DNA of 62,992 nucleotides, counting the filler, from Octopus bimaculoides (Eukaryota): NCBI RefSeq assembly GCF_001194135.2. It is 5 parts of 5 records of this genome, joined end to end, with 100 filler letters (N's around TTAATTAATTAA, not from the genome) between each part and the next. Parts side by side here need not be neighbours in the genome. Positions count along the whole stretch, not along the records: positions 1 to 8,405 come from NC_068981.1; positions 8,506 to 19,319 come from NC_068984.1; positions 19,420 to 45,982 come from NC_068988.1; 2 more parts are not named here. One strand, given 5' to 3'. Below are positions 759 to 38,289 of the stretch, piece by piece. Position numbers and translations under genes: made by a program. Positions within the stretch are counted from its first letter, which is position 1. Every line of letters begins with the position of its first letter. The notes under the pieces were generated by a model. That model worked only from the letters and a program-made list of their open reading frames with translations. It was not told where the DNA came from and searched no databases.

Positions 759-2133
759 TGGATAAGAACTGGGACGAGCTGACGAGCAGGGTAGCCAGTC
801 TCACCCACAAATTGGCTGGGAGGAAGCTATCACTGAAAGGGTCGAGCGGAGGTGGCGAATGGGCACATCGCATCCGTCATCTACTACCGCTTTAACGTCG
901 TGCCTTGGCCTCGATCGCGCATCGCCAAGTTAGAACGTCTCTTCTTCAAATTCCTGTGAAGTAGATGGTGAGGCGGTCCATCCGCTACCAACACCCTCTA
1001 TGTGGAGGGCTGGGCATGCCGTAGCTAATGATGCGCACACAAGCGCTGACGGTTCGGCATCTCCAGATATTCTGCCTAAACGGTGAACAGGTTTTGTTGC
1101 CGTTTGCCAAACATGTTTTTCCACAGCTCATCTCTGTGACTGGTCTGCAGTCCTGGGTCAAGAGAGACCTAGGAAGGGTGACTGGCATCTGGAATGTTGC
1201 CAGGCACTCACTGCCCTCTACCAGGCGGACAATGCGATCAGTGGAACATCCACTTTTGAGTTCTATAGAGGGTTAGTGGAGAGAAAGAGCAATGGCGCTA
1301 GGCGTTGATGAAATCGAACTATACAGTCTGTTCAGGAGGACTTTCGAGCCGGACACAATGGATAACTTCCCGAAATCCCTTGCTTGGCAAAGCTACTGGG
1401 GTGCACTGCCGGTTCGAGACAAACTCTACAGGAACGGAAGTGCTGTCAAACGGACCTGCCCGAGATGTGCGCAGAGCGACGAAACCGTTCTTCACGCACT
1501 CGTCCAGTGTCCTTGCATTACTGACATGTGGAGTTATATTGAACAGCTATTATCTCATGTAGGACGGGTCCGACCATCGGCCGAGTCCATAGTGAAGATC
1601 GATCCGCCACTTTCCATCGGTCCGGAAGGTCAGGCAATTTTCCTCTGTCTGATAGCAGTAGCGAAAGAGGTTGTATGGTGGACCAGGTTGAAAGGACTGA
1701 AGACAGACACTTTTCTCTTAGGTCTATCACTCATCAACTTTTTCAAATTTCATTTGGAAAGGAAGATGATGGTAGAGAGAGAAGTGTTTCCTCCCACTAC
1801 ATTTGCTAAAAGGTGGGTGAATGTAGCGAACATGGCACGTGTGAGTGAACCTACTCTAACAATGCGCCTGTGGGCTAGTTAATTTGAGAGGGAGAAGGAT
1901 GCTCTTTCCAGATGGCCTCGAAACGTCCAGTGGTTCAGGATTGGTGGCTTACCTGAGCCAACTCCAGATGGTTACCTCCCCGCCCTTAGGGAACTTCTAT
2001 TGTTATATTCTTTTGTTGGTTATCATTATTATTCCTTTAATTGTGTATTCGTTGTCTCTGTGTAAAATCCCCACTGTCCATGTCTACTGTATCGTTCCCT
2101 ATATGTCGGCCCTAGTGGCTAATAAATGAAATA
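759..2133 (+). mobile_element. 5'-truncated L1-clade (Tx1-like) LINE: frameshifted ORF2 C-terminal region with zinc-binding (zf-RVT-type) motif and 3' UTR
   Basis: NWDELTSRV..LSLKGR, GGLGMP, and ALPVRDKL..CPRC..ETVLHALVQC (ORF 1292-1882); ends GCCCTAGTGGCTAATAAATGAAATA followed by (TAA)n. Confidence 0.88.
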
Positions 2134-2168
<35 letters not shown>

Positions 2169-2229
2169 AATAATAATAATTATTATTATTATCATTATCA
2201 TTATTATAATAATAATTATTATTATTATT
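2134..2229. repeat. (TAA)n/(TTA)n microsatellite
   Basis: Direct reading. Confidence 0.95.
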
Positions 2230-4014
2230 TAGCTTTTATATAAAATCATACCAATTGTCTTACGTACTTGACGCGTATTCTGTTGTTGCACAAATATTCC
2301 ACAACAAGAGCAATCCAATAATGGGCAAACCAGCAGGTATCTCATCGTTTGAACTTTTCTACGAATATTCATACACACAAAGTAATTATATACGATCCAA
2401 AATGTAACACACTCATACACATTTTTATACATACGCATCCAACTTTCATGTAGACACACTCGGAACACTTTGAGACATGTTTACATACTGAAGAAAAATA
2501 CACACACAAAATTAGAAATAAAATAGCATGCATATACGAACACACATAATCCACTCGCATACGCATTCATATTTTGCATGCAAAAGACATTGCACACAAC
2601 AAGCAAATACACAGATGAACACGCAAACATTCTCAATATAATGCACACATACATAAGCACACACAATGTTTGGTCTTTCAGCAATATGCTATTTTCCGAA
2701 CATATTAAGATCTCCTAGTGCGAAATCGATTATATACGAAAATTATAACCTAATGCATTTAATTTACCTGACCTTGTTATGCATATGTATACAAAACATT
2801 TTAACCAGTGCCAGAAACAGTTTTTTTCTTCTGCAAGGCATAAAATATATACCAGTGTTTTGAATTATTTGTATTAATTTATACCGATGCAAACCATCGC
2901 TGGTTTCCATGGATTCCACTGTTTTGCTATATTGCATGCATTTAGTTTGTTTTATTGAGCGTACACTGTTACTATCAATTTTACTTGAGTCCAATATTTC
3001 CATTCATAGTACGGCTCAATCACATTCAGTGTTGGCCAAACATTCATCATCTCTCTGGCGTTAGTTTACATTCTCATTTATATCCTAGAGATACATATGA
3101 ATACCTCTAGGCGGTGTTAGCGCGATGGCGTTGGTCTAAACAATAACTACAACTACAAAGAATTAAATACTTTAACGTGTTTTGGCAGGGATTCGAGAGG
3201 AAGAAAATTCGTCTACGATGTCTGGCTTGTTTAAAGACCGAGTATTCCATTGGTCTTTGTAAATGGAAGTTTCTTTGTTTCTTTGTTTACTTGTTTCTCT
3301 TTCGATATTTTAATACAAAATGTTCGCGATAGTGACGATAAAACTTGCTTTTATACAGCTATTGATACTGCATTCTACGGAGAAGCATACTTGCAAGATT
3401 CTGAGTGCTAAAAGCCTCTGGATATTTATTCATTCAAATTCACCATCAAGTCATAGATGTGTGGTTCAGAATCTCTCTTTTGAAACCTCGTGGTTTCGGA
3501 TTCAGCCCCGTTGCGCAACACCTTCTGAGTGAATTTGGTGTACAAAAACTGTATGTATATATGTATGTATGTATGTATGTACAGCTTTGTGTGTGTGACT
3601 TTGTGTCTGTATTTGACTCTACTCCGTTCCACAGCTTCCGATGGTTTGTTTACGTCTCTGTAATCTAGCAGTTCGACAAAAACGATAGATAGAATAAGTA
3701 CAAAAACTTAAATAATTATTACAAGGTACACCTCAGTATAGCCGCACGCCAGTGACTGAAACACATAAAAGATAAATAATAATTATTTGGGAATTATAAA
3801 AGTATGCCATTTTGCTAAGAGAATTTAGTGGACCAGAAAAATTTAATGGTTTCAAACTTTGATACAAGGTCAACAATTTTAGGGGAAGGAATACGTCGAT
3901 CTCAACATTCCACTGATACTTATTTTGTCGAACCCCATGGGATGAATGGCAAAGTCAACCTCGGTGGAATGGGAACGCAAAGCGAGGAGAAATGCCGCTC
4001 AGTGGGCGAGTAAA

Positions 4015-5680
4015 TTCTTTTCTACTCTAGGCACAAGGCCTGAAATTTTTGGGGAGACGGCCAGTCGATTAGATCAACCACAGTACACAACTGGTACTTA
4101 ATTTATTGAGCTCGAAAGATGAAAGGCAAAGTCGACCTCGGCGGAATTTGAACTCATAACGTAAAGACAGACGAAATACCGATTTCTTTATTAGGCATAA
4201 AGCCGTAAACATAGATGGGGACACCACAAGGACAGAAAAGACCACAGTGGGGACAACAAACATACATAAAACGAATGTAAATGAAATGAAAGTTATATAA
4301 AAATGAAAAAAACAAATGAAAATGGACACATGGGCCCCACTCCCATGTAGTACCATTTGAACCGTTATATGTATTATTTACAATTGTTCTTTTTTTTCCC
4401 TTTAATTTCATACGTTTTTTTTTTGTCTTTAGTAGAACTTCATTAGTGGTTCGATATCTCTCAAATCCACCAATGGTGGCAACTCTTTAAATTCCACTTC
4501 CACTCCTGGTGAGTCAATGCTATCTCCACACATCTTTTTCAGCTTTCTGTAGTTTTCCTCTTCTTTTTCTGCTTCTCTGGCGGAGAACTCATTCCTCCGC
4601 TCCTCCTTCTTTTCTTTTTAACCATAGTGAATCCCTTCTCCGTTTCTTTTTCTGTTGCCTTGTCCTGTACTACCTGGCCCACACTCTCATCTCTCTCTTC
4701 CTGTTCTGTTTGTGGCCTTTTTTGGGTGCACCATGCCTTCATGTGGCCCCTTTTTCCACATGTGAAACACACTGGCGGCCTGCCCTCCACAGTAACTCAC
4801 ATCTTCTGGCAGCACAATCTCAACCACCACACTATTCAAGTCCTCTGTTGTTGTCTGAATCGTTAATTCGATACCATAACCCCAGTAATCTACCTTCTGA
4901 TTCCTTGTAGCCTTCAGAATCTTCCCGTCTTTCATATATGTTATGGCTGTCATCAGCCATTCTTCTTTCAATTCAGGTGGCACCTTACCCCCTCGCACTT
5001 TGGCCACACGTTTGCCGCGGTACGAAGGTAAGACCACCCATTCCTCTANNNNNNNNNNAATTTCTATCTTTCTCGTGGCTGCCTTCATGGTTTTAAATAT
5101 AACCGTTCTTTTTGTCACGTTGGCCCATAGCTCTTCAGACGGTGTTAGCTTCAAAGTGTTTCCTTCCTTTGTGATTAATTTCTCACTCTCCTTCATCTGT
5201 TTGGCTCCACTTTAATCTCGCGGACCTCCAACTCACGCGCGTCTACTCCTTTGCTCGTTGCAGCCGCATAGCTTGGGCCTGCCTCCGGCGCCTTCTCCAT
5301 TTTCCCACAATAGGAAACACAACAACAATTAACGAATCAACAACGGCAACAATTCAAACAATTCAATTAACAATGGCAACAATTCAATAGATATATCAAC
5401 ATAGACTCACGCAATAACTTCATAGAGACGAAATACCGCTAAGCATTTTGCCCAGCGTCCTAACGTTTCTTACTTCTTTATTGCCCACAAGGGGCCAAAC
5501 ATAGAAGGGACAAACAAGGAGATCGACCCTGGTGCGTAACTGGTACTTAATTTATCGACCACAAAAGCATGAAAGGCAAAGTCGACCTCGGAGGAATTTG
5601 AACGAAGAACGTAACGGCAGACGAACTGCCGCTAAGCATTTCGCCCGGCGTGCTAACGTTTCTGCTAGCTCGCCAACTTA
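4015..5680 (-). mobile_element. Dominant-family SINE split by the ORF1-only element (4015-4181 plus 5426-5470), followed by a second tandem copy (5471-5680)
   Basis: The two halves rejoin seamlessly across the 13-bp TSD. Confidence 0.8.
4182..5425 (-). mobile_element. ORF1-only (HAL1-like) non-autonomous Tx1/L1 derivative no. 1, with 13-bp TSD, inserted into a SINE
   Basis: Degraded ORF1 from the ATG at 5300 (SYAAA motif; knuckle CFTCGKRGHMKAWC), then short UTR and tail; AGACGAAATACCG duplicated at 4169-4181 and 5426-5438. Confidence 0.8.
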
Positions 5681-8129
5681 GTAGATGAGTAAATTAATAA
5701 AATGAATATGGCATTGTTTGATACTTTTACGATACTTTTTAAACGAGATGAACGAATACTGTATTAGCTTTTTCATTTCTATCAGAGATTTAAATGCAAA
5801 TGATATTAATTTTAATTCTAAACTGAGAGGGAAAAAACACAACAGCCTAACTGAAAGAATCCTTATCATTTTAGAATCGTAGCAGGGACGAACGTGTTAC
5901 CACTAACAGAGTGCCTGTAGACCTCTGCTATTGGAGTATAGGAATAACATTCTCCCTTCCGCCATCAGATTTGTATTATAATTGTAGCTGTTAATTTATA
6001 AATTGTTACGACGCTAATTTAATCTGCTAACGTTGACGAAGTGTGATACCTCGCTATGCAAGGCATTAATGGAAACAACTTCGCTGTTCGTGCTCTGTAG
6101 CTCATGAATTATCTATGAAGTGAGATATGTGTGAGCATAACAAACTATAGTTACATATCTGTTATATAAACACTGGTATTGCCTAATTTACATAACAAGT
6201 TACCATACTTTGTCTTTAAAAGGTTTACACCTTTAAATAATAGAATATGATGAATAAGATTAATATTTTCTCGAAGGGAATTATTAATATAAAGTGACTT
6301 CGCACCATTCCCAACGAAAAGTGAAAATAAATCATAAACATCGCCCAGTTATTAATACAAATCTACTAAAATATTTTTCATGCTCCCACTGTGAAATCCA
6401 TAGTCATATTTTCCAACTACCTCTCTCTCTCTCTCGCTCTCACTCGCTTTCTGTCTATCTATCTGTTTTTTGTCTTTATCTACATATATATATATGTACA
6501 TACGTGTTTGTATGCGTGTGTGCGTGCGCGTGTGTGTATTTGTATGTGTGTGCATGTGTGTTGCTTGTGTGTGTGTGTCTGTATTGTATTACATCTTACA
6601 ATTTGGTAGTTTCTTGGGATCAGCCTTTAATGTTATTAATCCACCTTTATTTTACATGTGCAGTATCTCATTCAGAAAAAAAACATAGGCGAATGAATCC
6701 TTTATGTTGTAATGGTTGCTTCATATCATCGAGCGACTACTCTGAAGAAGTCAACCATTTCTCATTGCTGAAGTCAATTCATTTGTGTGTTGAAGCAATT
6801 CTGCATTTCTGAGCCTGTGTTTTCTAGGATGCCCTTCACCCTTTCTGACAGAATTTTGATGAAATACGCAGTTCACAGACGACGTTAAATGTTCTTCTCA
6901 GTGTATGAACTCTCTCAGATACAAGGACAGGACAAACGTCGTCTTTCTCTCTTTCCAAACGTGTCATCCACTCATTCAGCAGCGACTAAAATATCTTGTA
7001 ATCGTCTGGCTAGCTAGCTATCTGTCTATCCGTCTCTCTGTCTCTCCGTCTCTCTGTCTCTCCGTCTCTCTGGCTATCCGTCTCTCTGTCTATCCGTCTC
7101 TCTATCTCCATATATAGTAACGTGCATGTGTGTGTATGTATGTGTGTGTGTGCATGTGTGTGCAGGTGTGTGTCTATGTATGTATCTGTTTGCCTACGTG
7201 CTCTATCGAGTGGTTCTCTGTATACTATACATGAATTCTCAGAGAATATGTAACACATATACACAAACACACACACACACACGCATGCACACAGACACAC
7301 AGAGACACACACACGTACTCAAACGCATGGTATATATTTAAATCTCATTTAATTCTCAGAATTCTTTCTATAAACAGGGATTTCAGTTCTTACAAAAGTT
7401 ACGTTCTTTGCTGGTATTTGGAAAATAAATGCAGTAAAATATTTTACATGTTAAATTTTAGGAAAACAAGCTTCCAAAATTAGCTATTGTGCTTAGAAAG
7501 ATATATATACTTTAATACGAGACTGAACCCAGGACTACAGGGTTCGGAAGTAAACATGTTACCACACAGCAATGTCTGTCCCACCACATGCACACAAACT
7601 CTCGCACATACACACACATATCTTTTATCTTTTTTATCAGTCATTACACTCCGCCATACGGGGGCACCGCCTTGAAGACTTTCTAGTCGCATGTATCAAT
7701 ACCAAAGCCTACGTTTTATGAGGCTAGTACTTATTCCATCCTTCTATTTTTTCGAACAGCGATCTTACGGGAATATAAACAAACTAGCGCCGGTTGTCAA
7801 GCGGTGGTGGGCGACAAACTCAGACACACACACACACACACACATACAGACACCCACACACACATAGACACACATACAGGCACTCACATACAGACGCACA
7901 CACATACAATTTCTATCTATCAAATTCACTCACAAGGTGTCACAACGTGGGGATGAAACCGGAACCATGTGGTTGGGAAGCAAGTTTTTTTTATATAAGA
8001 TGCACATAAATTACAGCTCTAAACTGATGTGGATCAGAATAATTTTAGTTGAAAATATTAAAATATATTTGCAAGTAGAGGTTTACACACAGTAGACTGC
8101 TGGAGAAAGTACTATCATGTACATATTTA

Positions 8130-8215
8130 CATGTTTGTGTATTTCCACACACACACACAACCACTCACACACATACATACACACACACACATACACACAC
8201 ACACACACACAACCA

Positions 8216-8255
<40 letters not shown>

Positions 8256-8282
8256 TATATACATATATATACACAGGCAATA

Positions 8283-8316
<34 letters not shown>

Positions 8317-8405
8317 CATACATATATATATACATACATATATATATACATACATATATATATATATATATATACATACATATATATATATATATATATA
8401 CATAC
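8130..8405. repeat. (CA)n/(TA)n compound microsatellite
   Basis: Direct reading. Confidence 0.95.
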
Positions 8406-8505
8406 NNNNNNNNNNNNNNNNNNNNNNNNNNNNNNNNNNNNNNNNNNNNTTAATTAATTAANNNNNNNNNNNNNNNNNNNNNNNNNNNNNNNNNNNNNNN
8501 NNNNN
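8406..8505. other. Assembly gap linker: 44 N + TTAATTAATTAA + 44 N (same pattern at 19320-19419, 45983-46082 and 61282-61381)
   Basis: Identical 100-nt construct four times; the 12-mer carries stop codons in all six frames. Confidence 0.9.
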
Positions 8506-8973: not shown

Positions 8974-9010
<37 letters not shown>

Positions 9011-10809: not shown

Positions 10810-10852
10810 ACCACCACCGTTACTACAACTATCGCTGCTACTACCACTACTG

Positions 10853-10898
<46 letters not shown>

Positions 10899-14876: not shown

Positions 14877-16216
14877 ATTCCGGTTTGTCCTCAAAATGGC
14901 GACCGGTTGTACGAAATTTATAATGTTTGTTGTAGAATGTTCGTTTCGCCAAGAAGAGGCAGTAACTTAGTACTTTAAAAGGTTGTTATTTTATTTTAAT
15001 ATAAGACTCAACACTTCTCATCTTTATTCATTAAAGTAATTTCCATTGTTTTCTATGACCTTAGTCTACTTAGCAGGCAACTTAAATATTCCATCGGCAT
15101 AAACCTCAGGTGTTTTTAAGGGGAAATAGTCATCTAAGTGGGATTTGACACCATCTAAATCATTAAATGATTTTCCTTTTGAAAAGTTTTGCAGAGACAA
15201 AAACGAATAATAGTCAGATGGTGCAATGTCAGAGGAGTATGGTGGATGAGGCAAGAAATCCCATCCAAGTTCATGCGACTTTGTGCGGATAGTCAAAGAC
15301 ACATGCGGTCGGGGATTGTCCTCGTGGAACACAACCTCTTTCCTGTTGGAGAGTGCTGGTCCCAGTTCCTTGATCTTTTGATTCAAATTTGCTAGCTGAC
15401 GGCAGTACACATCAGAATTGATGATCTTATTTTGTGGGAATACAGATTTTGAAATCCCACCAGATACAAAGCATGACTTCTTTTGAATTCTGCTTTAGAA
15501 GATATTTTCGAGGATCCTTACGCAAACTCCATGATCTTTTTCTCACTATATTATCGTAAACAATCCATTTTTCATCTCCAGTTACCAGTTGTTTCAGGAA
15601 AGGCTTATTTTCATTGTTTCAGAAGCATATCACAAATGGAATATCGGTCCATGCAGTTTTGTTCTGAAAGTTTGTGAAGCACCCAAACATTATTGCGAGA
15701 AACATATCAAATTTACACTAAGTGTTCATGAATGGTACTTTTGGAAACTTCCAGCTTCTCCGCAAGTTCTCAAGTCGTAATATTCGAGTTTTCTTCAATG
15801 ATTACATTCAAAATATCGTCATCTAACGTTGAAGGTCTTCCACAGCGATTGTCATCTTCCAAGCTGAATACACCAGATCTAAATTTTGCAAACCATCTTC
15901 GAATAGTTGATTCACCTACAACATCTTCACCATAAACTCCACAAATGATATTGCACGTTTCCGCAGCATTCTCACCATATTTTGAAGAAGAAAAGCATTA
16001 CGTGGCGAATATGCAACTTTCGGCTATCCATTTCAAATGGTAATTAGGGTTGAAAGGAGTAAAATATATGCTGCTTTTTAACGTGGAACTTAGCTGACAG
16101 GCTTCAATACTGCAAGCAATTCTGAAATGTAAGTCATACTAAGATAAGGATTGTTGCATAAAGGGCTTAAAGACACAAGTCCTGAAATAGCTCAGAACTT
16201 ACCGGACAACCTGATA
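14877..16216 (-). mobile_element. Degenerate mariner (Tc1/mariner) transposon with disrupted transposase
   Basis: ATG at 16031 (MDSRKLHIRHVML), STIRRWFAKFRSG, HEDNPRPHVS and PPYSSDIAPSDY (YSPDLAPSD-like); right end ...CCGGACAACCTGA-TA; left end approximate. Confidence 0.88.
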
Positions 16217-18857: not shown

Positions 18858-18959
18858 ACCTTGTGTGCAACCAAGTGAGGCTGATGAAATAACATGTATT
18901 AAATTGTATTGTCATAAATTGTATCAAATTTAATTAATTTTATACATACAAACATGGCC

Positions 18960-19319
18960 AAGATAAATGTTCCTATATGGTTGTGGAACGAGGAAAGGCT
19001 AAAAACCACCCTAACAACATCTCCATCAATGGCCTATCTGTTTCTCCAATATCTGATGAGGAATCCTACAGATACCTGGGAGTAGATGAAAACGTATCAT
19101 ACGAAGGTACTTGTAACAAAGAACGTGTTACTAAGGAATACAGAAATCGGGTTAGGAAAATATGGACCTCGGAACTCTCTGCAATAGCCCACAATGTGTT
19201 TTCAGTACCAGTACTCGTACCGACATTCGGGATACTTGACTGGACGATCGATGAAATCCGAGCCCTTGATGTGAAGACCCGGAAAATACTAACGAGCACG
19301 AACAACTTTCACATCAATA
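18960..19319 (+). mobile_element. R4/Dong/Rex6-like non-LTR retrotransposon RT-thumb fragment
   Basis: YRYLG..KEYRNRVRKIWTSEL..HNVFSVPVL..FGILDW..LDVKTRKILT; runs into an assembly gap. Confidence 0.7.
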
Positions 19320-19626: not shown

Positions 19627-21247
19627 CATGTGTATATTTGGAAAAAAAAAATAATAATAAATAAAATGACCATCTCAAAGTACAACAATATCTGTTTCAA
19701 CACATGATTTCATATCAGGAATCTTGCAAAATGAATTGATAAATGTTATCATCATCATCATCGTTTAGCATCAGTTTTCCATGCTGGCATGGGTTGGATA
19801 GTCTTACTGAGGACTGGCAAGCCAGAAAGCTGTACCAGGTTCCAATCTGATCAGGCAAAGTTTCTTCAGCAAATTTGGTTGGTGGAAACTGAAAGAAGCC
19901 CATTTTCTATTAAGTGTGGTTTAAAAGCTTGCTCAAGGTACCATGCAGTGGGACTGAAACTGAGACAACATGGTTGTTAAGCAAGTTTCTTAACCACATA
20001 TCCACACCTAAGCCTATATAACATAATAATGGTTATAATTATAAAACTAATACAGAGTAATAAAATGGTAGTTCCATTGTGTATTGATGTTTTTTTGTTG
20101 ATATGTCAACACTGGGTGAGATAAAGAGAAAGAGAGACAGATGAAGGGAAAGATAGAGAGATAAGTTCTATAGAAAGATAAAAGAAGAAAAAAAATTCAA
20201 CCTAGACAGAAGAATGAAAACTGCTACTGTGAAATGAAATATTTATAAAGTCCCATGGTAGAATAAAATAATTACAGACAAAAAAAAAGAAAATAGCTAC
20301 AATAAAATGAGTCAATTGGAGTCATACAGTGTACAGAAATAGCCCAAACATGAACATGTGTATTAGATAAGAAATCTTAAGATTATGGAAGACTAATCAA
20401 GTCATAATTCAACAGTAATGTAAAACGAAAAGTAGGGGAAATTAAATAATTGTGATAAAACAGTATGGTAGACTAAAATAGCAGAATTAAAATAATAAAG
20501 CAGGTTACGATAGCAATGCTAAACAGTATTGTTGACTAAAGTGGTAGTATTGAAGCAGTATGGTAGATTAAAATAGCTATAATAAAAACAAAAATAGGTA
20601 GACTGAAACAAAGGTATTAAACAGTATGGTAGACTAAAATAACAAAATTAGAATAGACCAAAATATCCAATAATTGTATTAAAATTGAAAGACATACGAA
20701 AATAGCTGTAAGAAAACAGCAGGGTAGACTAAACAGTTGTAAATATTATATAGTAAGCTAAAATAACAGTGTTAAGACAGTGTGGTAGACTAAAATAGTT
20801 TAATAACAGTATTAAAACTTTATGGTTGACTAAAAAATTTGGCAGACTAAATTAGCTGTCTTAGAACAGTATGGCTAGATGATTATGTTAAAACTGTACA
20901 GTAGGCAACATTTTGAATCTCACAAAAGAAATTATGAAGGATTAATGAATGGAAAGAAGCTCTGTTAAAACAGAATTCTTGAACCTATGTCCAGAATGGA
21001 AAAGTGAATGTATAAGAACTGATGATGATGATGATGAGACCAAACCAACTGAAGCAATCATCAATAGAGCCCATTAATAGGTTAACTGAATATGATTTTA
21101 TTGATGGTTAACAATAACTGAACCATTGACCACCACCACTACCACCATCATAGGTGAGGAGGAAGAGATAACTTAAATACACCAATATTAGGACAAACAT
21201 CAAGCAGTCAACTTGATATGAGATTTATTTATTCATTTATTACTTAC

Positions 21248-21460
21248 TGTTTCTTCAATTTGTTGCAGTTCTCCCCACACATTTGCAATGAGCACAGTGT
21301 TACTGTGGCCTCCAATTGAATCCTTCAAAAAATGAGTCAGTTTTGACTGACGGAATGGAATATGATCTCTCTTTTTGTCCGCCATTGCTACGACGACTTG
21401 TTCCAAAAATGACAGTGATTTATTTATGTACAACGCTTCTGCCTGTGTCTTAGCAGCTGA
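21248..21460 (-). CDS. KIF9: KIF9 coding exon 7 (SAAKTQAEALYINKSLSFLEQVVVAMADKKRDHIPFRQSKLTHFLKDSIGGHSNTVLIANVWGELQQIEET)
   Basis: 213 nt, ccag acceptor, gtaagt donor; INKSL, HIPFRxSKLT and LKDSIGG kinesin motifs. Confidence 0.96.
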
Positions 21461-22213
21461 CTGGTTCCACAATGGAAATTGGAAAGGAGGGAAAATGGAA
21501 AAAATAAAAGAAGAGAAACTTGGAGAATTATAAAGTAAATAAACATAGAAACTGAAGTAGAATGTCAATAACCAGGCTTTAAAACTATAATGAAAAGGTT
21601 TGATACTTAATACTGTATATTATAGTAAAGATTATTTGCCAGCATAATGTGGCAGTCCTGGTTGGGATGAATGCTACTGTTGTTTAGCTCCAGGAAACAT
21701 TGTCTCCAGCTGGCTATATGACACACTGTGATCTTATATATGTTCGAATAGGGGCATTTAGCATCCCTACCCAGCACAAAGAACAGGGGATGCTTAAGTC
21801 CCCTGTTTGAAAATATATAAGGACACAGATAGTGTGTCATATAGCCAGCTGGAAACAATGTTTCCTTGGGCTAAACAACAGTAACATTCATCCCAACTGA
21901 GACTGCCACATTAGGTTGGCAAATAATCTTTACTTTAAGGTACTGTTACTGAACGTCTCTTGTTCAGAGATTTAGAAATATGATGTTTCTAGTTACTGTA
22001 TATTATCACCATTACAAAATAAAAACAAAGTACAAGTATAATATTGTATACATGTTTTTAATGGCCACATTGGCTCCCTATTGTGGTGCATTTATTTCAG
22101 CTCTGGACATCAAGGCTGTGGAGTCAATACATAAGAACTTTAACTCTGAAGGGTTGGTGTATTGACTAAATTCATAGTACCACTAACTCTGACTTCAAAT
22201 GATTCCTCTAGTT

Positions 22214-23771: not shown

Positions 23772-23990
23772 AGGCAGAGAGTTGGCATAAATGTTAGCAT
23801 GCCGGGTGAAATGCTTAGCAGTATTTTGTCTGTCTTTACGTTCTGAGTTCAAATTCCACCGAGGTCAACTTAGGCTTTCATCCTTTAGGGGACGATAAAT
23901 TAAGTACCAGTTGCATACTCAGGTCGATATAATCGACTGGCCCCGTCCCCCAAAATTTTGGGCCTTGTGCCTAGAGTAGAAAAGAATATT
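23772..23990 (+). mobile_element. Dominant-family SINE (GGCCTTGTGCC-tail variant)
   Basis: Head ..GTTAGCATGCCGGGTGAAATGCTTAG.., core, and tail GGCCTTGTGCCTAGAGTAGAAAAGAAT. Confidence 0.85.
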
Positions 23991-24966
23991 GTCCTATTCT
24001 TCTTCATAAAAAGAATTGGATAACGTGGCTAGTCTGGGATTGTAAGGTGATGAAATGAGGATGACAATTGGAGAAGTAGGGATTGGGAAGAGGTGACAGA
24101 CACATTGTTAGTTTAGAGGAGGAGAGGTTGTTAGGGAAACAGCAAAAGAGGCAGAGAGAATAAAAATAGTCCATCTGTGAGTTAGCTGTAAAGTGTTGTT
24201 AGGTGAGATTCATGAAACAACCAGTGAGTATTTCTTTAGGAAATGAGGATTAGGATGTTTGCATGCGCCATAGACGCTCTGTGGGATGTGGTAAGAAGTT
24301 TGTCTCAAAACCACATGGTTCCAGGTTCAGTCTCAATGCATGTCACCTTGGACAAGTGTTTTCTGCTATAGCTGCAGGCCAACCAAAGTCTTGTGAGTGG
24401 ATTTGGTGGACAGAAACTAAAGGGGGTCTATCATGTAGGACTGAACCTGATACCATGCGGTTGGAAAGCAAACTTTTCAACCATAGAGTCATGCCCGCAT
24501 TTATGTGGTTGCTATTTCCAGCAAGTGCATACAGGACCTCACATTAGCTCATACTTAATTATACTGCAAATAATGATGATAAGACATGGTTCTATGGTAC
24601 CTCTCAAAATGTTACCATTTTTTTTGTTATTTTTATTTCACCATAACCTAATTAACATTCGCTTCCTTCCAAAAACTGTGTTAATCAGAAACACCCATCC
24701 TGCTTCAAAAGCTGTTAAATTCTAGAACCACTCCCATCTGGAAAATTGCAAACTTGGAACTACTACTTCTGCATATATTTTGATTTCAAGTGCCTTTGAA
24801 ACATAAAAATCAACAGAAACAGCTCCCAGCTGTCTTGAGCTTTCATAATACTCAACAGGTAAAAGTCTTTCACTTTGATTGTTTACACCATAAGAATATA
24901 GAAAATTCAAGAGACATGATATAAATTATTTTTAATGATGGAACCCAAATAGATAAAGTCATAAAT

Positions 24967-27256: not shown

Positions 27257-29030
27257 CTGCAGTGAATATTATAATTAAATTTAGTAAAAAAATGACACAA
27301 TCTATGTATGAATGAGTGTGTGTGCATGTAAATATAATTTTAACTTTTACATGAAAAACGTTGATAGTGACTTTAAAGTTTTTGTTGGCTCACCTTCACC
27401 AGACATCAGTCTGTGTTTTATTTGGGTTCTTTTCGGCTTCGAATAATATTGTCCTTTTTTTTTTTTTTGATTTTGGATAAGTAGACCAGGAAGGTAGTTG
27501 TGTAGGTAAGGGTGACAGTGGAGGATAGGAAAAAAGTATGTGCTTGTAGGATGTGGGTTGATGAAAAGTTATGGTAAGGAGATTTATTTTTATTTGATAT
27601 GAGGATTTTGTTAGTGCTTACAGTTCAGTCTACTCTTGAGAGAGGATTACAGAAAGAAGAACGACAGAGAACGGAAGAGAACATGGAGGAAAAATGAACA
27701 GAGAGAACAAGCGAAAGATGAAATAACCAGTTTTTCATTTATAAAGCAGCATTTCAATCATAAAAATTATGTTGCTTAAGAAGATCACTTTGCTATCACA
27801 TGGTTTTGGGTTCAGTCCTACAGCACAGGACCTTGAACAAGTGTCTTCTACTATAGCTTCAGGCTGGCCAATATCTTGTCAGTGGATTTGGTAAATGGAA
27901 ACTATGTAGAAGCCCACTGTGTGTGTGTGTGTGTGTGTGTATTTGTGTTTTCCTTGCTCCCCACTACATGACAACCAGCTTTGGTTTGGTTATGTCTTTG
28001 TAACTTAGTAGTTCGGCAAAACAGACCAATGGAATAAATACCAAACTTGATAAAGAATAAGTACTGAGTTGATTCATTTGACTAAATCCTTTAAGACGGT
28101 TACCCCAACATGGCCACAATCCACTGATGCAAACAAGTAAAAGATAAAATCAACTGCAGAAGCAGTAGCAAAAACAATGTGAGCAATGTGAGAGACAACA
28201 ACTAAGATACAACAACAACAACAACAATAGCAATGATAAAGACATCAACAGTAATGACACACACACTTGCATTACTTTTGATGGAGAAGATTTTCCAGCT
28301 CTCTTTTTGTGAAATTGGAATGGAGCAAAAACAAAAGCAACAGCAGTTTGGCAACAAATTGGCTGAGCATTATAAAAACAACCACAAACACCACCACCAT
28401 TGCTACATCCCTACGAACACCATTTCCTCTGTGGCAGCCAGTTCTAATACCAGTCAAAATATCAACAGAGGTTTAGAAGGTAGCAGCTGTAACAATAAGA
28501 ATTACTGAAAGATGTGAGATTCAGCTGCAAGAAATACAAGATTCTTGCAATTTTGTAAGGTGGCAAGGGAGAAGGGTATTGTTGGATGTACCACAGGAGG
28601 TTACACAAAGTAAAAAAAATATTTAGATGCTTGGTGACCTGTCAATGTATAAACACAAAAATTCCTGGAGTGAAGAAGCTAACACATGAACAAAAAGACG
28701 CCTGAAATTTGTGTGGGTGCAAAAGACATACCATATTTATTCATGCATTAGTTGCATTTATTTTATGCTTGAGATTCAATGTGACACAGAATGTGACAAC
28801 GGCTCTTTGAAACACAGATACTACTTATTTTTGCCAGCTGAATGGACTGGAACAGTGTGAAATAGAGTGTCTTGCTCAAAGACATAACACACCACTGGTT
28901 TTCAAACTCACAACCTTACAATCATGAGCTGAATACCCTAATCACTAAGCCATGTGCCTTCACAAATCAAATAATACCATCTTAGAAATGGAAGAATATG
29001 TAGGAAATATGTTGGGTAATGCACCTAAGT

Positions 29031-30291: not shown

Positions 30292-30690
30292 TTCTCTTTT
30301 ACTCTTTTACTTGTTTCAGTCATTTGACTGTGGCCATGCTGGAGCACCGTCTTTAGTCGAGCAAATCGACCTCAGGACTTACTAAGCCTAGCACTTATTC
30401 TATCGGTCTCTTTTGCCGAACCTCTAAGTTACAGAGACATAAACACACAAGCATTGGTCGTCAAGCGATGTTGGGGGGACAAACACAGACACACAAACAC
30501 ATATACATATACATATATACGACGGGCTACTTTCAGTTTCCGTCTACCAAATCCACTCACAAGGCTTTGGTTGGCCCGAGGCTATAGTAGAAGACACTTG
30601 CCCAAGGTGCCACACAGTGGGACTGAACCCAGAACCATGTGGTTCGTAAACAAGCTACTTACCACACAGCCACTCTTACGCCGAGCTACT
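30292..30690 (-). mobile_element. CORE-domain SINE copy in KIF9 intron 4
   Basis: Reverse complement of the 47540-47945 family. Confidence 0.8.
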
Positions 30691-31372
30691 TACCACACAG
30701 CCACTCCTACGCATTATTTTAACATACACTTTAACCTTCTCGCATGAGTCAAATGGAGTTTGTTGAGAGATATTTTTATCACTAGATACCTTTCATGTTG
30801 CCAGCCCTTACCTGTTTCCAAGTAAGGTAAAATAATTCCCCCATGGCCAGACTTGTTTTCACAGAATATTGGAAATATCAACAATCACACAGTGGCCAGA
30901 CAAGGAAACACAAACATACACACACACACTTACACACACATATACATAAAGAGTTCGGTTTGCATCTATCAAGTCCACTCACAAGGCTATCATAGAAGAC
31001 AACTTGCCCAAGCTGCCACATAATGGGACTGAACCTGAAACCATGTGGTTAGGAAGCAAACTTCACGACCATGCCTGCACCTAAGTTCTGACTGTCCATG
31101 CTTTTCATACTTTTAGTTAGCCCTTGCTTCATGTGTTCAGAGTAATATAAAACTTTCTTGTCATAAGTCCCAAGTTACTCTGGTGGTTGAAAAAAAATGG
31201 GAACGTGTATCGTATATGATGCCTGAATGTCAAAGAAATATGTCCTGTGTATCACATGTGTATCACATATGAGACACATGACAAGCAAAGAGTCGAGGGG
31301 AGTGCTAAATAACTGAATGACTCATGGTCATCAGATATATATGTTATAATCAAATAAAAAAAGTTGACTTGC

Positions 31373-31556
31373 CTCAAACAGCAAATTAAGAGCCTCTTCT
31401 TCATTGCGCACCAAATGGTATGACAGCCCTTTGATGTAGACATTCTTATCCGATTCAACAATGCTTAGTTGGTCAGGAACAAAATGCTCCACATATTCCG
31501 GCAGAGTTGACAAAAGATCAAACAAGGTTTCATTGTAAATTTCAAGGTAGGAAATT
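31373..31556 (-). CDS. KIF9: KIF9 coding exon 4 (ISYLEIYNETLFDLLSTLPEYVEHFVPDQLSIVESDKNVYIKGLSYHLVRNEEEALNLLFE)
   Basis: 184 nt; kinesin SYLEIYNE motif; KIF9-type LFDLLSTLP; ends at a non-canonical AG|GCAAGT donor. Confidence 0.95.
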
Positions 31557-33049
31557 CTATTCCACAGAAAAAAAAAAAAAAAAAAATTATATATATATAT
31601 ATGTATATATATTGGTATATATATGTATATATATTGGTATATATATGTGTGTGTGTGTGTGAAGTTGAATTTAAAAACAAGGAAAGTTGTAAAGTTTATA
31701 CATTCTTCAAAGCTGATGATTCACTCCGTCACTATACAAAATCACTTGCTAAGAGTGATCGTTCATGCTTCTACTGACCCTGAAGAATAACACATGGTGA
31801 CAAACTCTGAGTAATAATACAATGGATCATCAGTTTCAAACATGCACACACACGCACACATTAAATGCCATATAAAGTATGATCAGACCTCGTAAGGTAA
31901 CTATTTTGCGACCATGTATCAGAAAGAAATAGAGCAAAGCATTTTACAGAATTATATGACAGAGCCAAAAACCTAATTATACCAACTCATACATTGCAAA
32001 GTGGCTTCAAACATAAATGTTCTTGCAACATTTATTACATCAATCCTTGAAGAGTTGATTGTTAATATTTTCCTATTCTCAACAGTCAATTTGTTGAAAC
32101 AAATTTTATTGTGTCTTGGGACATGATTTCACATCAAGAATCTTGCAAACCAAATACAAATACAAAACAGTGAATTTATTTTGTATTTACTAAAGGATTA
32201 ATAATGAAGCTGAGACTTCTATGATAGCCCTGTGAGTGGACTTGATCGATGCAAACTGAATAGTTGATTGGCAGACTTTTAGAATAGTTATAACTATTTC
32301 ATGGAGTGAGCTAGCAGAATTGGTAGCATGCCAGGTGAAAAGCTTAGTGGCATTTCATCTATCCTTACATTCTGAGTTCAAATTCTACCAAGGCAAATTT
32401 TGCCTTTCATCCTTTCTGGGCTGATAAAATAAGTACCAGTTGAACACTGGGGTTGATGTAATTGACTTAACTACTCTGGGTATGAGTATAAAGAAAAAAT
32501 ACTGCATCACTCTGAGAAGCCATGTTGAGCCAGTATGGCAGGGTAAACTCATCAAACCAGTATGATCTCAAGCTCAAATTCACGGCCTCCACATCAGACC
32601 ACCATGGTTGGTGGAAAAAACATGCTAAGGCCTTCATCCTGCAGTGGACTGAACATAGGCAATCCAATCCAATCCAATCTCACAGAGAAGAAAAAGGATT
32701 ATTTTTGCAGTTTTTTTCCTTCTAAATGATGAGGGTAGTTACAATTCCTGAGTGTGCATAAGTCCACTAATTTTTCCATCTCTCTGATCTGAGATACCCA
32801 AATCATGTACATGTTTGTATTATAGCCTTTTTGCATTAATAGTTTAGCAGTTTAACACTTCATCCATTTTACCATTACACCTAAAAGTTATGTGGTATGA
32901 CTATTACATAATTTCAAAAAATGTAATATTTTTGAAATTTAAATCTTCTAACATGCAGAATGGCTCTAATACATTTTCTATAAAGAATATAAAACAACTA
33001 ATAGACAACATCAGACAATAGGAAAGATAAATAGGGAGAAAGAGCTCAC

Positions 33050-33203
33050 CTTACAGAAATTACGTTTTCTGTACAATCTTCAATCTGCTTGAAGAGTTGA
33101 GAAATTGCCCTGGGAATTAGTCCCCGATACTGAAAATTCTCGTGCACTCCTGATATAGTAAATGTTTTACCAGCTCCTGTTTGTCCATAACATAATATGG
33201 TTC
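33050..33203 (-). CDS. KIF9: KIF9 coding exon 3 with P-loop (TILCYGQTGAGKTFTISGVHENFQYRGLIPRAISQLFKQIEDCTENVISV-R)
   Basis: 154 nt, tttcag acceptor, gtgagc donor, phases 1/2 fit the neighbouring exons; kinesin Walker A motif GQTGAGKT. Confidence 0.96.
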
Positions 33204-33264
33204 CTGAAATTGGTGAAGTGTAGAGCAAGAATATAAAACAAAGTTGATTAAAATTACTAATTCA

Positions 33265-33495
33265 CCCATCAATCTGGCAGAAATGTTAGCATGCCGGGCG
33301 AAATGCTTAGCGGTATTTCGTCTGCCGCTACGTTCTGAGTTCAAATTCCGCCGAGGTCGACTTTGCCTTTCATCCTTTCGGGGTCGATTAAATAAGTACC
33401 AGTTACGCACTGGGTCGATATAATTGACTTAATCTGTTTGTCTGTCTTTGTTTGTCCCCTCTGTGTGTAGCCCCTTGTGGGTAGTAAAGAAATAA
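33265..33495 (+). mobile_element. Dominant-family SINE, near consensus (GCCCCTTGTGGG-tail variant), about 60 bp from the KIF9 exon 3 acceptor
   Basis: Head, Meta-like core and tail GCCCCTTGTGGGTAGTAAAGAAATA all present. Confidence 0.9.
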
Positions 33496-33959
33496 CACAT
33501 CAATCTTAGTGAATTCTTCTTAGACCAGATAAACTGTTTAACTCAGAAAAGGCAGTCCAAGTGAAAATGGAATATACTAAACTATTAAAAAATTCTCTCA
33601 GTGAAAAACTTCAATGCCAACACTGAGACATAGTTATACACCAAATCTTTCATTTATGAAAGTTTCATTATTGCTTAGTCTACAACAACTGCAATCATCA
33701 TTTAACATCCACAATCCATGATAGCATAGGTTGGATGGTTTGACAGGATTTAATGGGCCCAAGAACCGCATATTGACACTGTTGGATAAGTGTACTAAAA
33801 TAGATCTGCTGCCTGTTCAGGTGAATATTTATTTTTGAAATGAAAAGCTACAAAAACAGAAATAAGAACAGGTTATACGGACTTATGAGATTCCTGAAAT
33901 GATCGCAAAGAGAGAACGAAAGGAGGAGAGAGAAATATGGTTTCAAGGGAGATTACTCT

Positions 33960-34460
33960 TGTTCAATTCTTTAGTTATTTCCCTTCATAGATTTGTTTTA
34001 ATAAGCGATCTGGTTTATTTTGATAAATTCGATAAATACACGATAAGAAATTATCTAGTCTCGCACCTCTACGCCTTAAATTCCATAGTTGCCGGCATCG
34101 GCGATAGCAGTCATAATTTAGGAGCTGATGAAATATTTACCAAACACGTAAACAATCCCCACCCTTTCCAACAAGTTGTGGCTTCGTAGGCACCATGTGT
34201 ATTGAATTCCTTTACTGCTCTGAATGCGAGTGTCGTAGCTTGACACGCTGAAAAGGTGTTTGATGCAGTGAGATTTTTTAAGACGTGTTTTTCTAGTACG
34301 TAAAGATAAATAATCATTTTTTTCCTGAAAACTAGTACGATGTATGAAATTAACTTATTGACTGTAATCAGAAGTAACACACAATGGGAAATAATCGGTG
34401 TGACGTTGATGTCATTCATAAATGTATCGTCTGCATACGTGAAGTGAAATAACGGCAAAT
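33960..34460 (-). mobile_element. Very old LINE reverse-transcriptase relic
   Basis: FHFTYADDT, followed about 65 aa later by VKEFNTHGAY (degenerate xxFxYLG), and DRLLKQIY further downstream in another frame. Confidence 0.4.
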
Positions 34461-35199
34461 AAAAATCATTAACGGACTACAAACTCATTCTGCTGGAAGC
34501 TTAACTTTTCTAATATCGATTTCTAGCATTGGCACGTGGCCATACATTCCACAAGTGTAAAGTCGATTAAATTTCTACTAGTATTAGACTGATGTTTTAT
34601 GTTATCAGCACGGAATGATGAAGATTAAACTCGTAATAAAGATTGCAAGATATTTTGTTCAACTTTCTAATGACTCTTTCAGTTCACTCCCTCTCTAATA
34701 TTGATAATTAGAAATTGTTCCACTTTTAAAATGATAGACACCGTGTTCAAGACACAGGTCTTTTAATCCAAAGGTCATGTAAAAACTAACACTTCCTTCC
34801 AGGCTGAGATTCGAAACCGAATCTAAGGATTCTTGCTCATCTGGCCAAACAGGCGCAAAAGAAATTTCTTTGTCCTGTCAAAAAGTGGATGGTTTTTCCC
34901 TTCGACTTACGACCTCAGCCATGTCATTTAGAGTTCAAGTGGACAGAAGGCAACCTACATATTCACATTTACTTTTATTTATTCATACTTATATTTGCAG
35001 CACTAGTAATGCTTAAATTTATAATGTTCATAATGTTTATACTTAGGACGCCACTAACACTTACTCCTACTCCTGGTAGGGGCAACAATCTTAACATGTT
35101 TGAATGACAGGTCAAAAGTGAGAACAGGTATAGCATGTCTATCAAACGAACACAGAAACCTTCTTTTCAGTGTTGAATAACATCTCCCCTTCCCATGCG

Positions 35200-35515
35200 T
35201 CCTCCTACATTCCTTTGCCAGTTTTTAGAGTTGGCACTGTCAATGTATTCTCACTGAAAGGTAGGTCTAGTGAGATTGTAGAGATGCTTGAACAGAGACG
35301 TGTTGATGTATGCTGCATACAAGATGTAAGGTGGAGAGGAGCTTCAGCCAGGGTCCTCACAGGCAAGGCACAAAGGTATAAAATCTTCTGGGAAGGTAAC
35401 AGTGATGAAGTAGGGGGTGTGGGCATACTCCTTGCAGAGAAACGGGTGGATAAGGTCATAGAGGTAGTCAGGATATGTGATAGAGTGCTTAAGCTCAGGC
35501 TAGTCCTGCAGAATT
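35200..35515 (+). mobile_element. RTE-clade LINE apurinic-endonuclease fragment
   Basis: VGTVNVFSLKGRSSEIVEMLEQRRVDVCCIQDVRWRG..GGVGILLAEK..DRVLKLRLV (N-terminal APE motifs). Confidence 0.85.
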
Positions 35516-35552
35516 GTATAGCAGATTTCTAAAGAGTAAAATTAAGACTCAC

Positions 35553-35718
35553 CATTGTAACCCATAAGGGCGGCATTAACAAGGTCTGCTGCAACTTCAT
35601 TGTATACCTCTTCTTGACTAACATTATGTAGAACACCATCAAGTTTAAACAACCAGTCATGAATCTGGTTATTGACTACATCTTGCTTGACACTTTGACC
35701 AGCATGTATGTTAATGCT
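35553..35718 (-). CDS. KIF9: KIF9 coding exon 2 (SINIHAGQSVKQDVVNNQIHDWLFKLDGVLHNVSQEEVYNEVAADLVNAALMGYN-G)
   Basis: Not in the ORF track; translated by hand. ttttgtag acceptor, gtgagt donor, 166 nt. VNNQ-x-DW-x-FKLDGVLH is typical of KIF9 rather than KIF6. Confidence 0.95.
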
Positions 35719-36631
35719 CTACAAAATAAGAATGCTATAGAGTTAACATCAATAGCATCAATTTATATAATTTTTTTTCAAACCACCCACGAGAAAACTG
35801 ATTGACCCTGTTAGTATTGCATCATGGGAAAGAGATGTAAGCAGACCCTAATGAGTTGTTAAATCGTTAAATTATGACAGAACTGGTTTGGTTCTTTCAA
35901 AATAACTTCATAAATCTTAATTTCACAGTGAATGCGTATGGATATACATGCATGCACACGCGCGCACATACACACACATATATTGTGTTTACTAGTGTAT
36001 AAGCCGCATTATTTTATACTTTAGTTTAACTGAAAGACTGGGGTGCGACTTATACATGAGTAAATATAGTTGCATTTTGCCATAGCGGTACCAGTAACCG
36101 GTTGCTATATACATGTTAACATAGAATCATACATACGTGATATGGTGAGTTGATAAACTTCTTTGATTAACCGATATTATCCTTATCTAGAAGTTAAAAA
36201 CTATTCTAGAGGGGGTTAAAACATGCAAGGGAGACAACACCCATAAAATTGGTTAATTCAAATTTAGGGGAAATAAAGCAAGGGCAGTTACGAATGCATC
36301 TTCTGTTCGAAGCTAATTGGTAAAAGCAACGGACATACTTTGATCTTATCAGATTTATAGGTTGGTAAAAACGGCAAATCTACCACATATGCAGGCACAG
36401 CAGTTAAGCAGTGTCTAATTCCAATGTCCACCAAGGTTTGTAACTTCTTAACTTAGAAGAATGCCTGCATTTCATTTTCGAAAAATATGGGTCAACCGAG
36501 GAGTAATCTTCCAGTATAGGGTGGTAAAAAACAGTTAATAAAAATACAAGGGAAATAACTTACATCTTACTAGTATCATCCGTACTACTCTGAAATGTTT
36601 TTTTTTTTTTAGCTGTTTATAATTAAATCAC

Positions 36632-38289
36632 TATCTCTTTATTACCCACTAGGTGCTAAACAAAGAAGGGGACAAACACAATCGGGGAACTAAAATTATA
36701 ATACAGATGTATAAAGAAAATAAAAAAAATAAAAACGAATGAATTATGAACAAGATGATACAATGAGGCGGAATGTCCACTCGATCCCCGAAGTCGAGTG
36801 GTTACATTGCAACGGTTTTTTTTTTTAAAAATCAATCCACCTTAAGTCCAGCAGTTCAATGTCATAGTCCTGTTTAAGTTCAATATAACTCGTGCTTTTT
36901 GGCAACTTGTCTCTATCATCTTTTACCTTCCACAATTCAATCCCTTTATTGTTTTTCACTATTTCCTTTTGCTCCTCGTTCAACGAATAACACATCGCTG
37001 CCTCACCATCCTCCCAGAGTTCCACCTCAACCACATCCTTCTACTCGTTTACCTGTTTCATCAAGTCATCCTCCATGTCCTCATACAGAAGGCAAGCAAA
37101 ACAAACAGGAGGAGGGGGAACCTTATTTCCATCGTGTTTGTTTTTGTTTTTTTTTTGTTTTCTTGATGGAGGGGATTGGGTAGGTTTGGTGTCTGCATGG
37201 GGAGGGTGTGATGAAGAGGGAGAGGGTGGGCATTGGGTGTTTTGGGGCTCACAGGCACTTACTTTCTTCCTCTTTCTATCTTTCCTCCTCTTGGCCATTT
37301 CCCATTCCTTATCCTCAGGTGTTTCTTTTGTCTCTTCCTGTCTCCTTTCCTGTGGTGGCGGCTGTCGCTCCTCTACCATTTTGGGTGGTGGAGGGCAGTT
37401 CGCTCTTATGTGGCCCTTCTGACCACATTTGAAGCAGCGCGGTAACCTGCCCTTCACTCTTACATTCATTACCACTTCGTCCAATGTTATCGTTTCCACC
37501 ATCTCTTCTAACGCCTCACTCGAACCCTGCACTATCATGTTTACGACCTGGCCCTTCCAGTTTGAACATTTTGACTTCGTTGCCTGGAGCACCACTATTT
37601 TGCCGTTAGTCTCAGCCTAAACAGCGGCCGCTATCCAGGCAACGTCAATTTCCGGAGGAATTCCTTCTACTCATACCCGAGACGCTCTACGTCCCAGGTA
37701 CGTGGGTAGAAGTACAAGTTCTTCATCCTTCAATGAAGTTGCCGCATACTTCTTTGCCGTGTCTTCGTTTGTGAATCTCACCTCCATTTCACCAAATTTC
37801 GGCCCTCTGGCAAGATATTGCCAGATTGGCCTCAGCACCTTCTCTACCTGCGTCGTCAACATGTGGTCTATCTTCCCTTTCTTAATTGAGTATGTTTTGT
37901 ACATTATAGTTCTGCCTTTCATACTTTTTGTTATTTTGAGCGGAGGGGCCACGATAACGTTGTAACCGTCACGCTTCAACAACGTCTTATATTTCTCTGT
38001 GTCAATTTGTCAATTTCTACATTTTCCTCTTCTTTTCGAGCAACCTCCGCAAACTTCCTCTTATCGAGTTCCACGTCCATTGCATCAACCGCTTTCAACA
38101 ATTCTTCCTCAGGTGTCGAATACTCAGACCTGCTAAAGTCTGAGTAAAAGGTATTCCTTTTACTTTTAGCCATACCAACTCTCAAAGAGAGAACGTACGA
38201 CTACACCGCTGCAAAGCAGCAAATACAACAATCCTTTCTGAACGATATTTCACAAATAGTACAAACCTTTACTGGCCAACTCACACTTG
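36632..38289 (-). mobile_element. ORF1-only (HAL1-like) non-autonomous Tx1/L1 derivative no. 2, apparently full length, with 21-bp TSD, in KIF9 intron 1
   Basis: Fragmented ORF1 about 38170-36825 with knuckle CFKCGQKGHIRANC; no endonuclease or RT; AGCTG(T/C)TTATAATTAAATCAC at 36611-36631 and 38290-38310. Confidence 0.85.

Follow-up and report, generated by a model that had tools for sequence, protein, structure and literature searches.

Does a structured 3' end that is shared by several kinds of retrotransposon act as the signal by which one group of reverse transcriptases chooses its templates? The question is raised by a stretch of Octopus bimaculoides DNA of 62,992 nucleotides (nt; assembly GCF_001194135.2, five parts of five records joined end to end, hereafter the window), in which a Tx1-like long interspersed element (LINE; family T), two elements that carry only the first open reading frame (ORF1-only elements E1 and E2) and a short interspersed element (SINE) end in similar sequence. 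The initial annotation of the window read this as a four-member consortium, in which the Tx1 LINE mobilises both ORF1-only elements and the dominant SINE. Here, we find that the end runs through a radiation of Tx1-like LINEs and is likely the recognition signal of their ORF2 protein (ORF2p), with the ORF1-only elements and one SINE subfamily, SINE-B, likely copied in trans. The shared, covarying tail, the ORF1-only families and the L1-group ORF2 of the initial annotation were upheld, whereas the dominance of the Tx1-tailed SINE, the role of family T as the driver and the number of four members were not.

All four tails were located exactly where they had been described, at 2085-2133 on the plus strand and at 4182-4225, 5471-5519 and 36632-36680 on the minus strand, as was the short hairpin variant at 23961 (+), 43641 (+) and 4030-4040 (-). 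The common end is about 45 nt long and consists of a pyrimidine-rich box, a stem of 4 base pairs (bp) with a 5-nt loop, and an A-rich end, about 11 nt long, that holds a hexamer resembling a poly(A) signal; there is no poly(A) on the shared tail. The stem and 5-nt loop ahead of the hexamer are thus present in each tail as first seen, with a stem length of 4 bp. The window copies of E1 and E2 have each lost one stem pair through a private mutation; sibling copies of both keep all four pairs.

The stem was compared in 28 representatives that we chose ourselves (18 autonomous LINEs, seven ORF1-only elements and three SINE forms), with the 3' arm defined by us as the last four bases ahead of the A-rich end. 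Full 4/4 pairing is found at a loop length of 5 in 17/28 representatives, as against 0-3/28 at each of the other loop lengths tried (2 to 9). Full pairing is seen in 16 of the 21 distinct stem types, compared with 6.2 +/- 1.7 (maximum 14) in 100,000 permutations of the arms with the same loop freedom. The second pair of the stem is G-C in eight types, C-G in six and A-U in four, and double changes also occur inside clades (L324, L337 and L227 versus L326; L374 and L379 versus L357). As representatives and arm boundary had been picked by hand, the test was redone on a blind alignment of the same 28 sequences, on which RNAalifold selects exactly the same helix. Here, 78.6% of the cells are paired versus 65.4% after shuffling (a level reached in 0/500 shuffles), covariation is 0.416 versus 0.233, and controls in which the arms were slid are all lower, at 19-52% paired. 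The permutation test, the blind alignment and RNAalifold therefore agree with the proposal that the tail is shared and covarying.

In searches over the whole 2.34-Gb genome, the family T tail, followed by AAT/ATT repeats, was found at 30 loci, in one of which the hairpin is deleted. Long family T copies of about 5 kb carry ORF1, an endonuclease and a reverse transcriptase (RT), and their ORF1 is homologous to that of E1 (E 4e-14, 26%) and of E2 (E 4e-11). An RT query returned 8,876 candidates, and the 150 that were scored are 48-70% identical to it. Most of 72 long ORF2 homologues combine PF03372 and PF00078, and many add PF13966, the domain that is also present in the window copy; an ORF1 with a zinc knuckle (PF00098) lies upstream of ORF2 in family T copies and at other loci. 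Among solved non-LTR proteins, the nearest is human L1 ORF2p (E 6e-34, endonuclease and RT), versus E 5e-20 or weaker for R2 proteins (RT only). Domain layout and this match bear out the L1-clade assignment of the ORF2; we place the LINEs in the L1 group, and the label Tx1 is a putative one taken from domain layout and target behaviour, there being no named Tx1 reference among the search matches.

For the C-terminal region of ORF2, a tree was built from the 100 rows that passed a coverage and tail filter, less 13 duplicates; the resulting 87 copies represent loci with a detectable tail and at least 120 aligned residues, and include two rows with a mis-called tail. The tree resolves three deep clades (support 0.99, 0.97 and 0.94), and the tail is present in all three. 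Across it, the flanks are family-specific, which reveals preferences in target sequence. Clade III, which includes family T and its relatives, is inserted into arrays of (AAT)n, (ATT)n or (ATCT)n, and 25/25 scored family T copies lie in AAT/ATT microsatellites. In a clade II family, the tail runs into the head of another abundant SINE (hereafter the second SINE) in 21 of the 22 tailed loci (30 loci examined). This second SINE, possibly of the CORE type, gave 82 matches in a random sample. The flanks of clade I are mixed. The clade I groups L358/L359/L361/L367, L364/L368 and L376/L379 each have repeated 3' flanks in common, pointing to further specific targets. Four autonomous copies (L198, L206, L209 and L218) have related 3' flanking sequence with a motif like a hammerhead core, and this suggests a lineage that targets Penelope-type ends.

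The end could also be kept as a signal for the 3' processing or stability of the RNA, in which case recognition by ORF2p would be relaxed and the tail retained for the sake of a usable transcript. The hexamer does follow the stem in most families, and some SINE transcripts of RNA polymerase III are polyadenylated via such a hexamer. However, the insertions lack poly(A) and stop about 5 nt past the hexamer, and the clade II family L217 retains the box, the stem and the terminal bases although it has no hexamer. We thus consider a processing signal an unlikely explanation and continue with recognition of the end by ORF2p.

Both E1 and E2 are real multi-copy families (704 and 596 candidates, 40 of each scored). 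E1 is full length in 17/30 loci, with no space for an ORF2; the window copy measures 1.23 kb and the others 1.64-1.71 kb. Junction searches and an ORF1 search added five further ORF1-only families, E3-E7, so that the four members first envisaged give way to a large number of autonomous lineages and to seven or more ORF1-only families. In a tree of 41 ORF1 rows, E2 groups with E5 (bootstrap 97) and E1 with E6, E7 and E3 (100), and E4 stands beside the autonomous L218 (100); the deeper nodes are weak and the sampling of autonomous elements is incomplete. The ratio of nonsynonymous to synonymous substitution rates (dN/dS) is 0.11-0.17 between ORF1-only families, where dS is near saturation, and 0.32-0.59 within families, and the low values among families indicate that ORF1p was under selection. 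A search for homologues of ORF1 gave one match, an octopus CCHC protein. In raw RNA reads from three runs of one study, which are unstranded and leave transcript ends undefined, the E1 body has a bin depth of 0 to about 80, as against about 800 to 33,000 for SINE parts. Several E2-type copies (L039, L041, L044, L046, L049 and L056) have a common non-SINE target, at times in tandem, and two others (L034 and L069) lie inside sequence like the 5' end of an E2 relative. E7 (L384, L387 and L388) has its own fixed target, and the 3' flank of E6 (L383 and L386) is also that of an autonomous clade II copy (L383), which makes them a candidate driver-passenger pair.

The main SINE falls into subfamilies A, B and C. 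In a census of 60 stretches of 10 kb at even spacing, with 510,912 called bases in all, the 107 matches comprised 41 C, 31 A and 9 B copies, 13 without a tail and 13 with the body cut short; when it was redone with an A-type reference, the 105 matches included 34 A, 34 C and 8 B copies. The boundary between A and C is soft, and B stays near a tenth under either reference. The Tx1-tailed SINE had been called dominant; among the 81 classified copies, nine have the B tail. Its best local score against autonomous tails is 68, with clade I, whereas 200 shuffles, scored against every fourth tail, reached 32 at most. An Rfam scan returned microsatellite noise only, with no tRNA match, and ARAGORN called 0 genes; motifs resembling A and B boxes are seen by eye in the SINE head. 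A comparison of subfamily ages was dropped as it depended on the reference, the value for B being 88% or 81% according to whether a B or an A reference was used.

Where the elements land is informative in its own right. The window segment 4011-5675 is a three-layer nest, in which one SINE holds an E1 insertion at a position that we call site 1 and a SINE-B insertion at a second position, site 2. Elsewhere, E1 tails are visible in 23 copies (30 loci), and 19 of these run into a SINE body from a single nucleotide (site 1, window position 4181); of the remaining four, one is followed by a further ORF1-only element and three by other sequence. The 3' junctions are flush, as 23/23 tails stop at the same point, give or take one base, and lack an A-run. 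Exact junction patterns for site 1 gave 81 and 49 matches versus 0 in reversed controls; these patterns pre-select for the site and measure the number of junctions, not preference. Upstream of the junctions lie E1, E3, E4, E5 and, once, SINE-B, and the 60 host SINEs are of subfamily A (24), B (22) or C (1) or unclear (13). At site 2 or its equivalent in the second SINE, exact SINE-B-type junctions number 855, versus 2 in the reversed control. Among 15 unselected SINE-B loci, five are at site 2, one is in the second SINE and nine are elsewhere, with a background for site-2-like motifs of 244 in 1.02 million strand positions. A clade I LINE copy, L370, lies at the same site 2 in the head of the main SINE.

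Such recurrence might reflect hitchhiking, if one master copy, either E1 within a SINE or a SINE dimer, had been amplified as a unit. A 13-mer that resembles the site stands at the 5' end of E1 and E3 themselves and is often unlike the copy of the host, which would fit such a unit and means that the apparent duplication is partly element-borne. On the other hand, one and the same base is used by five different families as well as by SINE-B, the outer flanks differ, the hosts belong to different subfamilies, and very short 5'-truncated inserts with their own duplications are present at site 1 (e.g. L156). The last two observations therefore indicate separate insertions, and we regard amplification of a single master as very improbable. 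Complementarity between tail and target was also considered and rejected: in a small test of 14 families, the longest sense or antisense match between a tail and the target of its family did not consistently exceed the mean of the matches to other targets, and higher values were seen in a few families (E3, 9 nt, and E1, 7 nt, both sense; the L217 family, 8 nt antisense).

With separate insertions into defined sites, the landing site and the tail can both be asked which LINE is the driver. The window LINE, family T, has the common end and an ORF1 homologous to those of the ORF1-only elements, which speaks for it as the engine of E1, E2 and the SINE. However, all scored T copies sit in microsatellites and E1 at SINE site 1; the 3' flanks of ATT-family LINEs are of the ATT type on the sense strand in 8/8 cases, those of SINE-B in 0/8; and the T ORF1 is on a long separate branch of the ORF1 tree. 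Every Tx1-type passenger tail tested scores higher with clade I or II copies than with family T (SINE-B 68 vs 51; E2 59 vs 39; E1 46 vs 34), the best-scoring clade being clade I for E2-E5 and clade II for E1. Family T as the common driver is hence strongly disfavoured.

We consider it most likely instead that the ORF2p of these LINEs binds the hairpin and its flanks, and not poly(A). Target-primed reverse transcription would start at a fixed base just downstream of the hairpin, which would account for flush junctions that lack poly(A). The endonuclease would differ from family to family, and the enzyme that moves a passenger would set its landing site, so that the site could identify the driver. 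As the signal is common to the families, passengers could use any family that accepts it. SINE-B and E2-E5 would probably ride on clade I or II enzymes, and not on family T, and the ORF1-only elements would probably add their own ORF1p to the particle.

Several observations pull in the other direction. An autonomous element at site 1 was not found: ORF2 lies directly upstream in 0/60 junction loci, and 0/6 loci with an E1-like ORF1 (50-67% identical) hold an intact two-ORF parent, L383 being an ORF1-only piece nested ahead of another LINE; the search covered 6 of 150 ORF1 matches and tail variants of two junction patterns, which leaves room for an autonomous family there. At site 2, only 1/25 clade I copies was found, and 9/15 scored SINE-B copies are elsewhere. 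The stem is only 4 bp long, with -1.9 kcal/mol and a covariation term of 0.05 in RNAalifold, and two of the five measures on the blind alignment are not above shuffles (197/500 and 62/500). The families are akin, so the shuffles overstate significance and their counts are not probabilities; the permutation test in addition used our own choice of representatives and boundary. The poly(A)-signal-like hexamer could account for part of the conservation. Lastly, in primary sequence the A and C tails match none of 85 autonomous tails above shuffles (22 versus shuffle maxima of 24 and 28).

This last point concerns the A and C forms only, which are linked to Tx1 less securely, as the link consists of hairpin geometry and insertion-site bias. 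Both have a perfect 4-bp stem whose loop sequence is that of the Tx1 lineage targeting ATT, and ATT-type 5' flanks on the sense strand are found in 10/18 A and 7/17 C copies, compared with 1/8 for B and a background of 2.7%. We therefore suggest, with more reserve than for SINE-B, that A and C ride on the (ATT)n-targeting lineage of clade III. Alternatively, they could be moved by a LINE of another clade (Dong/R4, RTE or CR1), with a hairpin that merely resembles that of Tx1. Dong elements target TAA-type repeats, and a Dong-like frame is recognisable by eye in the window (18938-19318, no Pfam match), which together with the missing tail match would suit such a driver. Dong-R4, CR1 and RTE families are listed as recently active in a related octopus (PMC13282606, Table 1). 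Against this, stem length, loop length and loop sequence equal those of the ATT-targeting Tx1 lineage, and the flanks are of its type on the sense strand, a bias that favours an ATT-targeting driver without separating Tx1 from Dong/R4. No LINE with an A/C tail was seen in 1.55 Mb, where a SINE body precedes 143/155 tail matches and a LINE is visible ahead of none of the 12 others, a weak test since LINE ends are rare. A driver from another clade is a possibility to be taken seriously for these two forms, although we lean towards clade III.

One might speculate further that, in an animal L1-group lineage, a single tail, defined by its structure, serves as a common password over dozens of target-specific families; that SINE subfamilies change drivers through an exchange of tails, with nearly all A, B and C copies driven by Tx1; that SINE heads serve as landing sites for LINEs, ORF1-only elements and SINEs; and that the system supports long-lived ORF1-only lineages. 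We offer this wider picture tentatively, as one that falls somewhat short of being probable.

The features of the window are collected in Table 1. In addition, a near-perfect inverted pair of one tail junction (L261 and L262) was noted at G000:C1:65829266-65829330.

Table 1. Retroelements, tails and other features in the 62,992-nt window
Feature	Position	Strand	Remarks
5'-truncated family T copy (Tx1-like LINE, clade III)	759-2133	+	3' part of ORF2 with zf-RVT (PF13966, E 1.7e-9), 3' untranslated region and tail; 79% to long copy L122; same end base at 30 loci
Family T tail hairpin	2108-2120	+	4-bp stem, 5-nt loop; then A-rich end and (AAT)n array to ~2230
SINE 3' part with A-type tail	4011-4181	-	Split by E1 insertion; site 1 at 4169-4181
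ORF1-only element E1	4182-5425	-	Copy with internal gap; hairpin 4193-4205; zinc knuckle PF00098 found in copy L080
Host SINE head, 5' part	5426-5470	-	5426-5438 repeats site 1 (partly element-borne 5' sequence); site 2 at 5460-5470
SINE-B, Tx1-type tail	5471-5675	-	Hairpin 5483-5495; sits at site 2 in the head of the SINE that also holds E1
Mariner-type transposase fragment	15066-15494	-	PF01359
Dong/R4-like ORF	18938-19318	+	By eye
Kinesin-like exon	21233-21619	-	By eye; E2 within same stretch
SINE subfamily A copy	23775-23987	+	Hairpin 23960-23972; with target-site duplication
Second abundant SINE	24309-24421	+	
Second abundant SINE	27797-27903	+	
Second abundant SINE	30522-30660	-	
Kinesin-like exon	31331-31720	-	By eye; E2 within same stretch
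Second SINE-B copy	33273-33494	+	
Endonuclease of probable RTE-type LINE	35134-35532	+	PF03372 below cut-off
E2 target-site duplication, 21 bp	36611-36631 (3' copy); 38290-38310 (5' copy)	-	One mismatch
ORF1-only element E2	36632-38289	-	Full length, 1.66 kb; hairpin 36644-36656; PF00098; within intron of kinesin-like gene (identity by eye from exons)
SINE subfamily C copy	43521-43665	+	Hairpin 43640-43652
Transposase-like ORF	44131-45163	+	Unclassified
Second abundant SINE	47550-47681	+	
SINE-B copy	50584-50785	+	Tail cut ahead of hairpin

Partnerships of this general kind are known, and in each case the comparison rests on the accessible text of the paper cited. SINEU of crocodilians has been linked to Tx1-Mar by a common preference for a site inside another transposon (Kojima, 2015, PMC4494074), and the same text describes Tx1 families that target microsatellites or transposons, as well as tandem insertions and target-related 5' additions. 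For these elements, however, poly(A) ends are reported, and no LINE matching the 3' half of SINEU-1 is described there, whereas in octopus LINE and passenger have both the sequence and the structure of the tail in common, poly(A) is absent, insertion is into SINE heads, those of the passenger's own family included, and ORF1-only passengers take part. Stringent pairs within the L1 clade are LINE1-1_ZM with ZmSINE2/3 and L1-1_CR with SINEX-3_CR (Ohshima, 2013, PMC3747384), which likewise combine L1-group LINEs, a conserved end of about 45 nt, a hairpin with compensatory changes and SINEs with that end; they differ in their poly(A) or poly(T) ends, and target specificity is not described in the text consulted, which counts only three L1-tailed SINEs, none of them from an animal or from Tx1. 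Non-autonomous LINEs that keep ORF1 include HAL1 (L1), HeT-A (Jockey) and Ag-Sponge (CR1) (Kojima, 2018, PMC5786205). They resemble the octopus elements in having a single gag-like ORF1, no ORF2, a retained 3' end and presumed trans-mobilisation, but none of those listed comes from Tx1, and octopus has at least three groups in the ORF1 tree, several of them at one SINE nucleotide. The model of an ORF2p that binds a short 3' stem-loop comes from the L2 systems ZfL2-1/ZfL2-2 and UnaL2/UnaSINE (PMC4176376), in which recognition was shown experimentally in another clade; in octopus it is deduced from sequence. For O. vulgaris, 13 recently active L1-Tx1 families are reported (PMC13282606). Our literature search, with most subscription papers, Repbase and Dfam outside its scope, found no paper on these tails, on the ORF1-only families or on SINE-head targeting in cephalopods, nor on a SINE with a Tx1 tail; the families may already bear names in the O. 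vulgaris repeat library (PMC13282606), in Repbase or Dfam, or in Ohshima and Okada (1994).

Taken together, we describe a real feature, a variant of the stringent partnership between LINEs and their passengers. Each ingredient has a precedent, and the combination within one animal Tx1-like radiation appears to be new. The finding belongs to the natural history of transposons and brings no new host function. In the available text of PMC3747384, the L1 group is the exception among LINEs, with tail-sharing SINEs only in green plants and algae, and it is asked whether stringent recognition is ancestral. A covarying tail over a whole radiation of Tx1-like LINEs in an animal is directly relevant to that question and provides natural stem variants. 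If our interpretation is correct, one RNA signal combined with many endonuclease specificities would be a ready system in which to map enzymes to passengers. It would also help to explain part of the SINE load of octopus genomes and the nested clusters of SINEs that mislead repeat annotation.

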